Positions 23,924 to 30,586 of a stretch of 64,000 nucleotides of DNA are shown piece by piece; position 1 is the stretch's first letter, and each line of letters begins with the position of its first letter. This stretch comes from a virus: the IMG/VR virus record IMGVR_UViG_3300050821_003228, positions 1-64,000 of that record; one strand, 5' to 3'. The notes beneath the pieces are model-generated. The model did no database searches and had not been told where the DNA came from. It worked only from the letters and a program-made list of their open reading frames with translations. The translations under genes and the position numbers were made by a program.

Positions 23924-24822
23924 TGGAAAATCAAATAGAAGAGAATGTAATAGAGACGAAGGAATTTGTTTATCGTTATCAGCCGGTCGATAGTCTTGGC
24001 CGGAAATTAGGTGCGGAGCAAGTTTTCAAGGGCGCGACTGCTCAAGAAGTGCTTGATAAGGTTGCTGAAGCTAATAAGAACTTAATTCAATTGAATCGTA
24101 ATTTGAAGAGGAGTTTACGTCTTGGTGAATTTGAGCGAGAAGAGTTGCCGAATGATGCGGCTAAGATTAGAAATAATCAAATTCTTCAACCGAGAGAATT
24201 GACGCTGGAAGAAAAGGCGCAATTCGCAAGAGACATTCTTGACCCAGAAAAATTTGATGATGTTAATAACAGGATTGTAGAAGCGCAACTCGGCGCTAAA
24301 CCTGAAGAGATTCGCAACCGTATCAATAGTCAGGAACAGAGGTTAGCTAATATTGAAGCGCGTCAGGAAGCTGAAGCGTTTTCAATGGCAAATCCTGATT
24401 ACTTCGTTTGTGTAGATAATTTCAAGACGATCACGGCTTGGATGGTGAAAAATGAACTTCATCCAGTTCGTGAGAATTTTCAACTTGCTTATGACACTTT
24501 GAAAGCGGAGGGACTGATTATTGAAGCGCCAGTTAAAGAGATTATTCCTACTCCTGCTATTCATTCAGTTCCACCTGTTGAAGTCGCGCCGGTTATACCT
24601 GTTACACCACCTGTTCCGCCAGTATCAGCAGCTAGAGTCGCGCCTTCAGGATTGACTCGTGAATTAGCATCAGATGCGGGCACTCCTCCAGTGAAAACGA
24701 CATTGACAATTCGTGATATTGAAAGAATGCCTTCAGCAGAATATAAAGATCGTCTATTGCATGATAAGAATTTTGCAAAAGCGGTCGATGAATTGTATAC
24801 CAAGAAGGTAGCGCGTGATTAG
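23923..24822 (+). CDS. probable capsid scaffolding protein
   Basis: Coiled coil, Pro-rich linker, C-terminal I..M...EY. Confidence 0.7.
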   Translation: MENQIEENVIETKEFVYRYQPVDSLGRKLGAEQVFKGATAQEVLDKVAEANKNLIQLNRNLKRSLRLGEFEREELPNDAAKIRNNQILQPRELTLEEKAQFARDILDPEKFDDVNNRIVEAQLGAKPEEIRNRINSQEQRLANIEARQEAEAFSMANPDYFVCVDNFKTITAWMVKNELHPVRENFQLAYDTLKAEGLIIEAPVKEIIPTPAIHSVPPVEVAPVIPVTPPVPPVSAARVAPSGLTRELASDAGTPPVKTTLTIRDIERMPSAEYKDRLLHDKNFAKAVDELYTKKVARD

Positions 24823-25249
24823 AGAGTATCAATCTGGGGATATGCAGTGGTTATGGAATTGTTATAAAAACTACCTTCCTGAATTGAATTTAAGGTCGCC
24901 TATATCCGGGTTTTCTCAATTTGCTGATGCTGTTGAGAAGGATAAAACTTTTATATACAATAATGAAAACATTAATTGTGGTTTCATAACTTCGTTTGTA
25001 GATGAAGGATCGCCGTGGATTTGGACCGTTGTGGTCAGACTTGATTGGCAAAATAAAGGTATCGCTACAAGGTTGATTAATAAGGTTGAGGAGCATTATA
25101 AGAATTTAGGTTATAGCCATATATGTCTTTATGTGGCAGACGATAACCCGGCCCAGAAATTATATTTTGATCTTGGTTATCGTGTTGTTCGAGTTATGAA
25201 GGGCGTTTATGGAGATAAACCGGCCCTTAAAATGGTTAAATATTTTTAG
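24815..25249 (+). CDS. GNAT acetyltransferase (RimI-like)
   Basis: V..WQNKGIATRL, N.AQKLY..LGY. Confidence 0.85.
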   Translation: MIREYQSGDMQWLWNCYKNYLPELNLRSPISGFSQFADAVEKDKTFIYNNENINCGFITSFVDEGSPWIWTVVVRLDWQNKGIATRLINKVEEHYKNLGYSHICLYVADDNPAQKLYFDLGYRVVRVMKGVYGDKPALKMVKYF

Positions 25250-25251
25250 GA

Positions 25252-25929
25252 GTGAGGATGATTAATCAGAATAGCATGTTGTATTGGTGGCCTAAGATTA
25301 AAGATTTAGGCATACCAGTTCCTAGAACTGAAATTGTTGAGTTTGGTTCACAAGATTTTACATCTTCAGACCGATTAGAAGAACGGGTCAACCTTATTGG
25401 TTTGCCTGTTTTTATACGTACCGATCTTTGTTCAGGTAAGCATGATTGGAATCAATCTTGTTTTGTTGACCGAATGAATGTTCTTATACAACGGTTTGCT
25501 AAAGTTGATGAGAATAATGTTCGTTGGCGAATGTTGGGTATTGAACCAAAAGCATTGGTTATTCGTGAGTTTCTTGATTTAGAATCGTCATTTCGGGCAT
25601 TTATTGGTAATATGCCGATTACTAAGGAACGACGTTATTTTGTTAAAGATGGTAAAGTTATTTGTCATCATCCCTATTGGCCTGTCACAGCATTTAATAA
25701 TCATCCAGCACGAATGGTTGATGATATTAATTGGAAACAAAAACTTGAAATATTAAATCAAGAAGATGATTCTGAAAGTATATTAGTTAACTATGCTGAG
25801 AAGGTTAGTTGGGCGGTTGATGGTTATTGGTCAATAGATTTTGCTAAGGGAAGGAATGGTAAATGGTATTTAATTGATATGGCTTTAGGAGAGAATTCAT
25901 ATCATTGGGCGGGCTGTAAAAAGATTTGA
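25252..25929 (+). CDS. ATP-grasp domain protein
   Basis: FIRT..SGKH, IREFL, ERRYFV, WSIDF..WYLIDM. Confidence 0.7.
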   Translation: MRMINQNSMLYWWPKIKDLGIPVPRTEIVEFGSQDFTSSDRLEERVNLIGLPVFIRTDLCSGKHDWNQSCFVDRMNVLIQRFAKVDENNVRWRMLGIEPKALVIREFLDLESSFRAFIGNMPITKERRYFVKDGKVICHHPYWPVTAFNNHPARMVDDINWKQKLEILNQEDDSESILVNYAEKVSWAVDGYWSIDFAKGRNGKWYLIDMALGENSYHWAGCKKI

Positions 25930-26105
25930 AAGTATCTTATCGGATTATAAGGTACTATCCCGAGTGCGTGAGGTAACTTTGATTTACTTTAGTCAAAGAT
26001 AATTGATTCCGGTCGGATTACCGGATAGGTTGATCGCAGTGAAGTCAAGTGAGTCCCTGACTATCAAAATTATTTTGAAGATCGGGCCATTTGTTAAGGA
26101 AAAAT

Positions 26106-27592
26106 ATGTCTTTTTCTCCATCAAGTAATGTACAGTCAAATTTACCTCAATCGACTGTAAAGTACTATGATAAAAAGTTTAGGGAGAATTTGAAGGCTCA
26201 GACTCCTTTCGTTGCTTGTGCAGAACGTTTGGATTTGCCTATGAAGTCTGGTAACCAATACCAGATGTTCATGTACGTGCCTTTGGCTGGTAATACTAGT
26301 CAGACTGCACAAGGTACAGTGGGCGCGGGTATTCAAGTATCTGTCCTAACTACGACAGCAACGATTGGCGAATACGCTGATTACGCATCGTTCTCTAGTT
26401 TGTCTCTTGCAACTGCAATCGACAATACTGTAGAAAATGTTGCGAGAGAGATGTCTTATCGTCTTGGTGAGTCATTGAGCGCACTTGTTCGTGCAACTGC
26501 TGACGGAGCAAACTCTGTTGATAGTTCTGTATTGACAAGTCTTGCTGCAACAAGTACTACTAGTTTTACAACTTTGAGTCTATCTCAAATCAGGAATTCA
26601 GTTCAGTCACTAGCTGGCCGTTCTGTGCGTCCTTTTGATGAAGCTTCAAAGGCTTTCGCGGGCGTGATCCATCCGTTCGCTTTGGGTGATGTATTGGCTG
26701 ACAATTCAAATGACAGCCCAATCGACATCTTGAAGCACACTCCCGTAGGTCAAGCACGAATGGATGAGTTAGTCTCTGTTGATTTGACAGAAGTCATTGA
26801 ACTTCCCGCATCGGGCGTTCATTTCTTCCAGTCTAATCAAGTTACTACCACATCTAACTATAAGTCTGTAACTGGATTGACTGCGTTACGTACTTATATT
26901 TTCGGGCGTGATGGAATCTTCGCTATCAACCTTGGCGCACAAGGCGACGTAGGTTATGGTGACGGAGAATGGCAGAACATTTATATTGGTGTTCTTTAAA
27001 TCTTTTTTAATTGACTCGAACCCTGAAATGGCAACGAGGCGCAAGCAGAGAAATCGTGCAGCGTGAGAGACTAAACAAAGAGACTCAGAAATGAGATGTA
27101 ATAGTCCGGTCTAGTGCAAATAAAAGTACTAGAGATAGACAGAAATGTTCTATCCTGTGAAAACAGTAACAATTCGCAAATGTAACATCGTTCAAAACGC
27201 TGAACCTAGCGTTGCGGACCCTGAAGGTTTGATTCCCGGCTTTATAATTGTCTGGCCGGATTATCTGGACTAAGAAGTTAGGGACAAGTTATCGCGTGCA
27301 TTTTACGACGAGCCTTGGCCCAGATACAACCATTAAAATTGTACTAGTAAAATGGATACACGGTGGTTGTTAAATTTACTCTGATTGACTTGAACGCTGA
27401 AATGCCAACAAGGGGCAAGCCGAAAGGCAGCCTGAGAGACTAAGCGAGTAAACACGGAAACGTGATGCGATAGTCCGTTCTAGTTGTTAATAAGTAAACA
27501 CTAGAGGTTAGCAGAAATGACTAATCCCGCCGAAAGGTGAGTAACAAGTAAGTCGTATCCGCGAAATTGATTCAGCATCGGCCATAAGTTAA
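26106..27592 (+). CDS. major capsid protein (N4-gp56-like), 343 aa after joining exons 26106-26980, 27177-27241, 27282-27333, 27553-27592
   Basis: Joined C-terminus ..WQNIKCNIVQNAEPSVADPEGLIPGWTSYRVHFTTSLGPDTTIRIREIDSASAIS*; exon lengths sum to 1032 nt, in frame. Confidence 0.88.
26981..27176 (+). mobile_element. group I intron (196 nt, ORF-less)
   Basis: P1 AGAACAT/GTGTTCT with U.G; GAGAGACTA and ATAGTCC P7 strands; ends in G. Confidence 0.9.
27242..27281 (+). other. 40-nt group I-like mini-intron without catalytic core
   Basis: IGS TTGTCTGGCCGG pairs with ligated exons CCGGCT|GGACAA; U before 5' site, G at 3' end; removal restores TGG and frame. Confidence 0.75.
27334..27552 (+). mobile_element. 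group I intron (219 nt, ORF-less)
   Basis: P1 ACAACCAT/GTGGTTGT; P10 GGATAC/GTATCC; GAGAGACTA and ATAGTCC; terminal G; core similar to intron 1. Confidence 0.9.
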
Positions 27593-27651
27593 TGAAAATA
27601 AAGGACTTAATAATCCAATGTTAATTAGTTGATAAGTGGCAAAATATTATA

Positions 27652-27680
27652 TTGACATAAGGCGGTATATATGATATACT
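27652..27680 (+). promoter_or_regulatory. sigma70-type promoter
   Basis: TTGACA-17-TATACT; ATG at 27687. Confidence 0.75.
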
Positions 27681-27686
27681 GTCCTT

Positions 27687-28247
27687 ATGTTGATATATGA
27701 TTTAGCTGGTCAAGTATTTTCAAAATTAAAAGTTCGTTGCAAAGACGGTAAAATAGGTACTCGTACTGCTTGGTTATGTGATTGTGAATGCGGCGGCACA
27801 ATAAGAACTATTCGTAAGAGTCTTCGTAATCGAAGTACCAAAAGCTGTGGATGTCTACGGCAAAAAGTAGGCCGCGCAAATAAAACGCACGGTGCAACAG
27901 TAGGCGGTAAACCGACTGTTGAATATTTTGCTTATATAAATGCAAAACGGCGTTGTAATAGCCCAAAAGCACAGGCATACGGTCGCTATGGTGCTCGTGG
28001 TATAAAATTTAATTTTACCAGTTTTGAAGAGTTTTTTTTTGAAGTTGGGCCACGTCCCTCAATAAACCATTCGCTAGACCGCATTAATAACGACGGGCAT
28101 TATGAAAAAGGTAATGTAAAGTGGTCAACTTATAAAGAACAGGCAAATAATCGGCACACTTCGTTAAAATATGTAAGAATGTTAGAGGAGCAAGTAAAAA
28201 ATTTAGAGGAACAATGCCGGTTGATGAAAATGGAGAAGAGTACATAG
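27687..28247 (+). CDS. free-standing HNH homing endonuclease
   Basis: WLCDCECG..SCGC, RC..YG.RGI, SLDRINNDGHY.KGN.KW..Q.NNR. Confidence 0.88.
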   Translation: MLIYDLAGQVFSKLKVRCKDGKIGTRTAWLCDCECGGTIRTIRKSLRNRSTKSCGCLRQKVGRANKTHGATVGGKPTVEYFAYINAKRRCNSPKAQAYGRYGARGIKFNFTSFEEFFFEVGPRPSINHSLDRINNDGHYEKGNVKWSTYKEQANNRHTSLKYVRMLEEQVKNLEEQCRLMKMEKST

Positions 28248-28410
28248 ATTGGTGTACAGTTTTAGTATCTCATATTATACGTTGTGAGAAACATAAAAAA
28301 TGGGATTGCAATGATAAAGAATGTGATCGGTTAGCTTGTATAAAGATTGAAGAGATAAGTGGGACGGACTAAATCCGTCCCTTTTTCTTTGGGCCGATTT
28401 TGGAGGATAA

Positions 28411-28824
28411 ATGGAGATAAAAGAGGCGGAACGATTGGTTTCTGAATTACAGAAAGCCAATCAAATAGTCGGGTTTGTAAAGAGGGGCGAGACTCTAAAT
28501 AAAGAAAAGGATTTTAGGAATAAGAGACAAAAAGAATGTAATCATCGTAAGGGACACGTTATTAACAGTTACATTGATAATCGTGGCGATTTACATACTG
28601 ATGTTACTGTTTCTGGTTCAAAATATAATAATTATTCGATAATTAAACATACATTCTTTCGGGGAGATACTTGGGTTATATGTCCGAATTGTGGTAAAAA
28701 GTGGAAGCCGGGCGATACTGATTATGAAGTTGCATTAAAATTTCCTACCAATAACCAAGCATCTGCATCAATCCAAATGACTGTAGATGTTAATCAGGCT
28801 CGACAATTAACTAAAGAGAGTTAG
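28411..28824 (+). CDS. Zn-binding hypothetical protein (paralogue of 30005)
   Basis: CNHRKG..KH.F..WV.C..CGK.WKP..ALKFPT. Confidence 0.7.
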   Translation: MEIKEAERLVSELQKANQIVGFVKRGETLNKEKDFRNKRQKECNHRKGHVINSYIDNRGDLHTDVTVSGSKYNNYSIIKHTFFRGDTWVICPNCGKKWKPGDTDYEVALKFPTNNQASASIQMTVDVNQARQLTKES

Positions 28825-28832
28825 GAGGAGTT

Positions 28833-29027
28833 ATGGAGGAGTGTGTACGCTGTCAATTATTGACAGAAGTAATAGACGAATTATCGCATGAATTGGCGAA
28901 GGCTCAACAAGGAAGACGGGCCGCGTTCAGAGAATCCCTTGCTTTAAAGAGATTGTTACTGATCGACATGGAAGTAGAACATGAAAAAGCGATAAGTCAG
29001 GCTGATGGGTTTGGAAATTCGGCGTAA
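28833..29027 (+). CDS. hypothetical protein
   Basis: AGGAGG SD. Confidence 0.55.
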   Translation: MEECVRCQLLTEVIDELSHELAKAQQGRRAAFRESLALKRLLLIDMEVEHEKAISQADGFGNSA

Positions 29028-30004: not shown

Positions 30005-30586
30005 ATGACAGAAGCAGTTACACCGGTACAGAAGAAACAATCGCTTGAAGATATGGAGTTAGAGTTTAAGCGATTAGAAATTGAAGCTAAGAAATTAGAG
30101 TTGTTAGATATACGTGATCGCGTTGATGATCGTCAGATGAAGCGCGATAATCGTGAACAAAGGACGAGGGCGAACGGTCAGGTATTAGATAATAACCTAG
30201 CTCAACGCCGTGCTGTTCAAGAACAGTGTAACCACCGTAAGGGTGGTAACGGGTTAGAAGGATTTGCGTCTGGACAAGGCGATGATCCTCAATATGCAGT
30301 GCTAAAGCATCAATTTCTTAACAGTGATGTTTGGGTCCGTTGTCTTCGTTGTGGTAAGTGGTGGAAACCACCTGTCGAGTCATCTTTCTATTTTGATGCG
30401 CGAGGAAGAGAAGTTGCCTCTAAAGATGGCAAGTTTGATGCAGAGAAGTTCGCTCAAGCTAAAGCTGAATACGCTATCGCGCTAAAGTTTCCTACAAGGA
30501 ATTCGATGTCAGGATCATACCAGTTCAAATTCTCAGACGGCGGTCAAGTATTTCGTGAAGCAACGAAAGATACCGACAAGACTTAG
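30005..30586 (+). CDS. Zn-binding hypothetical protein with N-terminal coiled coil
   Basis: Shares motifs with 28411. Confidence 0.7.
   Translation: MTEAVTPVQKKQSLEDMELEFKRLEIEAKKLELLDIRDRVDDRQMKRDNREQRTRANGQVLDNNLAQRRAVQEQCNHRKGGNGLEGFASGQGDDPQYAVLKHQFLNSDVWVRCLRCGKWWKPPVESSFYFDARGREVASKDGKFDAEKFAQAKAEYAIALKFPTRNSMSGSYQFKFSDGGQVFREATKDTDKT

Follow-up and report, generated by a model that had tools for sequence, protein, structure and literature searches.

The major capsid gene of a soil phage, an essential gene, contains a 40-nt intron that lacks a ribozyme and is nevertheless precisely removed from the mRNA, and many such elements are found in the capsid genes of related phages, with clear selection on the helices that define their splice sites. 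The possession of a ribozyme of their own is what defines group I introns. The mini-intron described here has the guide and the splice sites of that class, and on comparative grounds it most likely borrows the ribozyme of a complete group I intron that begins 52 nt downstream. New here are an exact spliced RNA junction at the site and covariation for the P1 and P10 helices and for a tether that joins the mini-intron to the exon behind it.

The interrupted capsid gene and the excision of its inserts

The window (the whole 64,000-nt stretch of DNA that was analysed) belongs to a virus record that is complete, 97,817 bp long and bounded by direct terminal repeats, and the major capsid gene, on the plus strand, is present as a single copy in this 97.8-kb genome. 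The gene product shares 80% identity with the major head protein (gp6, 343 aa, uninterrupted) that is encoded by Tunturiibacter phage Tunturi_3, a cultured podovirus of Acidobacteriota, and tblastn against that protein delimited four capsid exons, which are split by inserts of 196, 40 and 219 nt (Table 1) and which, once joined, encode a complete protein of 343 aa. The first-pass annotation had proposed that the middle insert breaks the capsid frame and that its removal repairs it, and both statements hold. Left unspliced, the ORF at 27145..27273 stops at a TAA at 27271-27273, and deletion of exactly the 40 nt at 27242-27281 recovers in the window protein the sequence that Tunturi_3 gp6 reads across this point, LIPGWTSYRVHF, and with it the full-length product. 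An alignment of homologous capsid genes, suggested at the same time, gave an uninterrupted reading with a W at the insertion point in 99 of 101 relatives (PGW, most commonly within GLIPGWTSYRVH); the 40-nt insert is missing at this point from 99 of the 101 homologues.

Table 1. Coordinates of the capsid gene, its inserts and the adjoining endonuclease gene in the window
Feature	Position	Strand	Basis
Capsid exon 1 (..GEWQNI)	26106..26980	+	80% identity to Tunturi_3; PHROG 1357 major head protein; contiguous in RNA contig (run X2, record 4)
Intron 1, full compact group I, 196 nt	26981..27176	+	Family alignment; skipped exactly in RNA contig
Capsid exon 2, 65 nt	27177..27241	+	tblastn, RNA contig
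Core-less mini-intron, 40 nt, terminal omega-G at 27281	27242..27281	+	Skipped exactly in RNA contig
Internal guide TTGTCTGGCCGG	27248..27259	+	12 contiguous bp with ligated exons, p = 0.0008
Tether strand TATCTGGACTAAG	27262..27274	+	Pairs at 12/13 positions with exon 3 27314-27326, p = 0.005
Capsid exon 3, 52 nt	27282..27333	+	tblastn, RNA contig
Intron 3, full compact group I, 219 nt, proposed helper	27334..27552	+	Family alignment; skipped in RNA contig; core motif at 27384
Capsid exon 4 (RIREIDSASAIS, then stop)	27553..27592	+	tblastn, translation, RNA contig
Free-standing HNH endonuclease gene, directly after capsid gene	27687..28247	+	PHROG 374, E = 4e-41

Excision was observed in RNA. 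A soil metatranscriptome (run X2) yielded a 1280-nt contig at a depth of 29, with zero mismatches to the exons over all 1080 nt that align to the window, in which position 26980 is joined to 27177, 27241 to 27282 and 27333 to 27553, leaving none of the three inserts. The 27241/27282 joint is exact, with no positional ambiguity, and it is the very junction that the first-pass annotation had predicted and had put forward as a test. The intron bins of the run are at zero depth and depth falls tenfold just beyond the stop codon, as expected from abundant capsid mRNA and not from contaminating DNA. Meanwhile, in DNA run X1, possibly the source sample, a 46.5-kb Logan contig keeps all three inserts and the spliced joints are absent. 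The insert is not an assembly error, since this independent DNA contig carries it and homologous inserts occupy the same site in other metagenomes, and the RNA is unlikely to stem from an unrelated allele without introns, given that DNA identity to the window capsid gene is only about 72% even in the nearest relatives. With RNA support from one assembled contig of one run, the data confirm that the 40-nt insert is a genuine intron, precisely excised from the capsid mRNA. Two further RNA runs carry parts of the gene: a small piece in run X3 covers only 26106-26329, and a low-depth contig in run X4 (27371-27598) has intron 3 still joined to exon 4 and represents either precursor RNA before splicing or carried-over DNA; both pieces lie outside the mini-intron. 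Among the fetched loci, a search for the other mini-intron genes described below in spliced or intron-less form gave no exact match.

Splice-site helices, tether and the flanking introns

The internal guide of the mini-intron defines both of its splice sites. Its first half, TTGTCT (27248-27253), is the P10 strand, whose partner is the opening hexanucleotide of exon 3 (GGACAA, 27282-27287), and its second half, the P1 strand GGCCGG (27254-27259), pairs with CCGGCU, the last six nucleotides of exon 2 (CCGGCT in the DNA, 27236-27241), placing a G27254.U27241 wobble at the 5' splice site. A continuous P1 plus P10 pairing of 12 bp with this wobble had been pointed out by the first-pass annotation, and it is well beyond chance: a guide as good arose in only 0.08% of 5000 shuffles. 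Thus a U in a U.G wobble of P1 at the 5' splice site, an omega-G (G27281) together with a P10 pairing to the 3' exon, and exact excision with exon ligation in RNA, all of them marks of group I splicing, are found in the 40-nt insert. The catalytic core P3-P9 with its guanosine-binding P7 is absent; there is no room for it and no Rfam match was obtained. The earlier reading of the insert as one that obeys group I splice-site rules and is too short for a core is thereby upheld, as only 22 nt remain after the guide, 13 of which pair with exon 3, and about 9 nt of the whole mini-intron lie outside the P1, P10 and tether pairings.

The tether helix ends at exon base 27326 and the exon strand of the intron 3 P1 (CAACCAU, 27327-27333) begins at the next base, so the two pairings are directly adjacent. 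The minimum-free-energy fold of 27228-27334 returned both the P1 hairpin and a 7-bp core of the tether helix. Part of this strand, the motif GGACTA, had been assigned by the first-pass annotation to a contact with the TAGTCC strand of P7 in the neighbouring introns, and this assignment did not stand. Complementarity is present but at chance level against length-matched targets (p = 0.31 for intron 1 and 0.69 for intron 3), and the motif is missing from the homologous mini-introns of loci L089 and L151, though the L089 helper keeps TAGTCC; the downstream intron of L151 is cut off by the end of the contig, so the comparison of helpers is confined to L089. The GGACTA bases are part of the 13-nt helix with exon 3, which covaries and abuts the P1 of the downstream intron. 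Mimicry of a P7 strand, which was considered for the mini-intron of L010 as well, was rejected as being at chance level and not conserved.

The inserts on either side of the mini-intron were placed in an intron family through an alignment of the two window introns with four inserts of about 200 nt each from related capsid genes. This six-sequence family has P3, P4, P5, P6, P7 (GACUA/UAGUC), P8 and P9 helices, with compensatory changes in 25 of the 39 predicted pairs, and each full intron of the family is preceded by a U paired to G in P1 and has G as its last base. In intron 3, the guide GTGGTTG at 27363-27369 pairs with the exon strand CAACCAU to form a 7-bp P1. Both flanking inserts have a covarying P3-P9 core, the U.G pair and the omega-G and are excised in RNA, which makes them genuine group I introns, an identity that comes from their own alignment and their removal from RNA. 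Neither an Rfam scan of 25000-29000 at E <= 1 nor an RF00028 search of the whole genome returned a group I match, full introns included, and the introns were for this reason defined from homologues. The family core motif was matched in at least 119 stretches of IMG/VR (loci L083-L201); in this genome it is found only in introns 1 and 3. A compact group I family of about 200 nt that goes undetected by RF00028 even at E <= 1 represents an annotation gap in phage metagenomes.

Mini-introns of related phages and the introns downstream of them

Relatives were gathered from IMG/VR with a search for exon 1 followed by a search for the intron core motif, and they identify the capsid gene as a hot spot of interruption in this phage group, with up to five or six inserts per gene. 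Sixteen distinct short inserts of 35-98 nt lie at seven codon positions of the related capsid genes. All 16 have a U at position -1 paired to G, a terminal G and, near the 5' end, a contiguous P10 plus P1 guide of 11-16 bp, and every guide is better than expected from shuffled sequences (p <= 0.006). Full-length introns of 566-881 nt occupy three of the seven mini-intron sites in other phages, which suggests that the short forms were derived from full introns by loss of the core. The mini-introns of L010 and L035 (35 and 34 nt) differ by indels, which excludes a coding constraint on the insert. In some genes of this group, five or six interruptions fall within 1 kb of capsid sequence (L126, L154, L100, L146 and L199), full introns of 200-1200 nt being mixed with two mini-introns per gene, and some of these full introns are big enough to hold an endonuclease gene.

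The site of the window's mini-intron (site 2) is occupied by short variants in the window, in the L089 type, which was present in four metagenome samples, and in L151, and by a form of 94-98 nt in L092, L146 and L199. The exact pattern of the window's mini-intron had no match in IMG/VR; a 14-base degenerate pattern gave, in metagenome_contigs and viral_contigs, chance matches only, except for L089 and L151, and a 16-base pattern retrieved only the four copies of the L089 variant and L151. Among the window, L089, L151 and the L092 type, P1 covaries at position 2 (CG, UA or AU) and position 5 (CG or UA), and P10 changes at positions 5-6 between AU AU and UA UA, switching together with the exon; this covariation rests on few sequences, and the pairs were counted by script, not from a MAFFT alignment. 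The tether behaves in the same manner: in L089 and L151 the helix forms between the mini-intron and exon positions that also pair in the window, the pair at position 8 being U-A or C-G and that at position 11 A-U or G-C, so that synonymous exon changes are matched in the mini-intron, although the statistics rest on only three homologous site-2 sequences. At the level of sequence comparison, these matched changes demonstrate selection on P1, P10 and the tether. The 94-98-nt form (L092, minus strand; L146, 8045-8141; L199, 7536-7633) sits at the same codon as the window's mini-intron and combines the same guide with a TATATCT motif and an extra covarying hairpin, and it looks like an intermediate between the full and the 40-nt introns.

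A full intron accompanies the mini-introns throughout. Each of the 13 mini-introns on contigs long enough to be checked has one 26-209 nt downstream, and a sample chosen by capsid similarity alone comprised about 69 uninterrupted genes, 5-6 with full introns only, 5 with both kinds and none with a mini-intron only. This constant co-occurrence with a downstream full intron, shown by the sequences of the sampled genes, fits the dependence on a neighbouring full intron that the first-pass annotation had anticipated. The intron of site 3 is present in L062 without any mini-intron and is therefore autonomous. L010 and L035 have no full intron upstream of the mini-intron, only a downstream one.

Comparable tethers occur with other mini-introns. 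In L010 and L035, the tether is an 11-bp helix that leaves 6 nt to the following 5' splice site (p <= 0.002), and GACGUAG-like segments of the L092 type and of the different mini-intron of L154 pair with the same exon stretch, 9-10 nt ahead of the splice site at which the same helper intron begins. The tether thus abuts the P1 of the helper in the window and in three other combinations of mini-intron and helper (L010/L035, the L092 type and L154). Where the exon downstream of the mini-intron is long (90-209 nt), the tethers are short, about 5 bp, and not significant.

Catalyst, precedents and genomic setting

With somewhat better than even confidence, it is proposed that the mini-intron is a substrate-only intron and that its 40 nt are removed from the capsid pre-mRNA through group I-type chemistry carried out by the tethered downstream ribozyme. 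The mini-intron supplies a P1 with its U.G pair, the adjoining P10, the terminal G and the 13-nt tether. Pairing of the tether with exon 3 sets the P1 of the mini-intron (6 bp) and that of the helper (7 bp) at one junction and, since the tether abuts the helper's P1, both helices, which are of similar length, radiate from that junction. The core of intron 3 and its guanosine-binding site could then serve the two P1 helices in turn. For the mini-intron, the core would dock the tethered foreign P1 and guanosine would attack after U27241, after which G27281 would be bound in the G site of intron 3 and exons 2 and 3 would be ligated; intron 3 might remove itself before or after this excision. One ribozyme would in that case serve two introns, and the mini-intron would be a natural non-autonomous group I intron hinged beside the P1 of an autonomous one, a description held to be somewhat more likely than not. 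We infer that the downstream ribozyme would perform both transesterifications in the order given and that the mini-intron would have originated by core loss.

A group I core might also splice the mini-intron without intron 3 being the specific source, the catalyst being intron 1, 65 nt away, or either neighbour, and the helix with exon 3 serving only to organise folding. Intron 1 is just as near and is a member of the same family, the mini-intron is flanked by two full introns, and the P7 strand of intron 1 is complementary to CTGGACTA of the mini-intron over 8 bp. That pairing is the chance-level one discussed above and is not conserved in L089 or L151; moreover, the downstream-only arrangement of L010 and L035 and the abutment of the tether on the downstream P1 in four combinations of mini-intron and helper speak against intron 1, so that this alternative is considered unlikely and the comparative evidence points to the downstream intron 3 over either neighbour alike. 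Splicing with no canonical core at all, aided only by the exon context, has been claimed in vitro for PaSSU, a 67-nt intron of Phialophora (PMC3160393), and the phage tether resembles the helix between intron middle and 3' exon of that intron. Such a route is improbable here, as the roughly 9 unpaired nucleotides leave no room for a guanosine-binding P7 and no mini-intron was found without a full intron in the same gene.

Excision by protein machinery, an endonuclease and an RNA ligase of phage or host for which the helices would be recognition elements only, is regarded as very improbable: the U.G, the terminal G and P10, all conserved, are precisely the features that determine group I splicing, and a bulge-helix-bulge motif was not seen in the fold. 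No splicing endonuclease is known in bacteria. It is harder still to credit that the insert stays unspliced in this phage, as a dead relic or as a site of ribosomal bypass or frameshifting, and that the RNA contig came from an intron-less allele. Contigs cannot prove that the insert was in the DNA template, and frame B is open from 27248, which would in principle allow a rescue by a +1 shift; against this, the RNA contig matches the window at every aligned nucleotide while the nearest relatives differ far more, and DNA run X1 holds no intron-less joint. Bypass would, in addition, make selection on P1 and P10 pointless and would sit poorly with L035 and L010, whose mini-introns differ in length by indels and the first of which has no matching take-off and landing codons. 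Translational bypass and +1 frameshifting were both dropped once the RNA contig without the 40 nt and the L035 codons had been considered: the gap is not kept in the mature mRNA, and in the window the only codon pair near the homologous reading, GGC to GGG, loses the W that nearly all relatives keep.

Phages are known to carry self-splicing group I introns, with several in one gene in some cases, as in td, nrdB and sunY of T4 and orf142 of Staphylococcus phage Twort. The mini-intron shares with these a U.G in P1, a P10, an omega-G, residence in an essential phage gene and homing endonucleases nearby, and the flanking introns of the window are of the T4/Twort kind; however, each intron of that kind has its own P3-P9 core and the 40-nt insert has none. 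In organellar split group I introns, two halves rebuild one core and join the exons of separate transcripts. Splicing depends there too on non-contiguous RNA parts, but the phage insert has both splice sites and no piece of a core, and the neighbouring introns are complete on their own, so it is not a split intron. T4 gene 60 contains a 50-nt bypass gap with a mobA HNH cassette, and the gap stays in the mRNA while the ribosome hops over it. Like that gap, the insert is short, contains a stop and interrupts an essential phage gene near which a free-standing HNH gene lies, but the insert is gone from the RNA. A conceptual likeness exists to MITEs and SINEs, stripped derivatives that keep recognised ends and rely on an autonomous relative, although these depend on proteins for DNA mobility and the mini-intron would need an RNA catalyst for splicing.

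[quoted passage not shown] These small introns are thought to derive from full introns by deletion, and they are said to keep P7 and to use a terminal U (PMC3160393). The phage mini-intron is likewise far below ribozyme size and has P1, P10 and a helix of intron middle and 3' exon; it differs in having no P7 of its own, in lying outside rDNA and in not belonging to the fungal set. The fungal introns reside in eukaryotic rRNA genes and are not reported beside a full intron, whereas the phage inserts interrupt mRNA and are always followed by a complete intron. Furthermore, the phage inserts are smaller, most being 34-49 nt, and end in the canonical G where the fungal ones have U. Engineered trans-acting group I ribozymes, such as the Tetrahymena L-21 ScaI construct and the trans-splicing Azoarcus ribozyme (PMC3895272), demonstrate that a group I core can act on a P1 that is not its own and that the chemistry is feasible. 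Those are laboratory systems in which the ribozyme supplies the guide; in the phage gene the arrangement is natural and the substrate itself would carry the guide, tethered in cis. Full-text literature searches found no description of core-less introns of group I type in phages; the Tunturi phage paper does not mention introns, and a study of crAss-like phages mentions only 'unknown forms of gene fragmentation'.

If the proposal is correct, the capsid gene would provide the first example from nature of a group I ribozyme that works on another intron besides itself. Should the neighbouring intron indeed do the work, the natural repertoire of group I ribozymes would extend to foreign substrates, and introns could parasitise other introns. 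The essential capsid gene would be locked into keeping its helper intron, making a host gene dependent on a selfish element. Within group I, the arrangement would parallel the transition from introns that splice themselves to ones that need a shared catalytic RNA. Independently of the catalyst, the mini-inserts, 35-100 nt in length, shift the frame and add stop codons, and gene callers consequently truncate or split capsid genes in phage metagenomes.

The capsid gene is followed directly by the free-standing HNH endonuclease gene, which is preceded by a near-consensus sigma-70-like promoter site at 27652-27680. The endonuclease may target intron-less capsid alleles and so drive the spread of introns. 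Pfam gave no match for either the HNH ORF or the capsid exon, and both were named through PHROGs. Further downstream on the plus strand, two paralogous ORFs at 28411-28824 and 30005-30586 (137 and 193 aa), which had no Pfam or PHROGs match, share a zinc-ribbon-like motif, CNHRKG...KH.F...W..C..CGK.WKP...ALKFPT. Directly upstream of the capsid gene, also on the plus strand, 25252-25929 encodes an R2K-clade ATP-grasp protein (PF14243, E = 9e-9), and this gene is itself preceded by an ORF at 24815-25249 that lies in the same position as the acetyltransferase gene gp5 of Tunturi_3.
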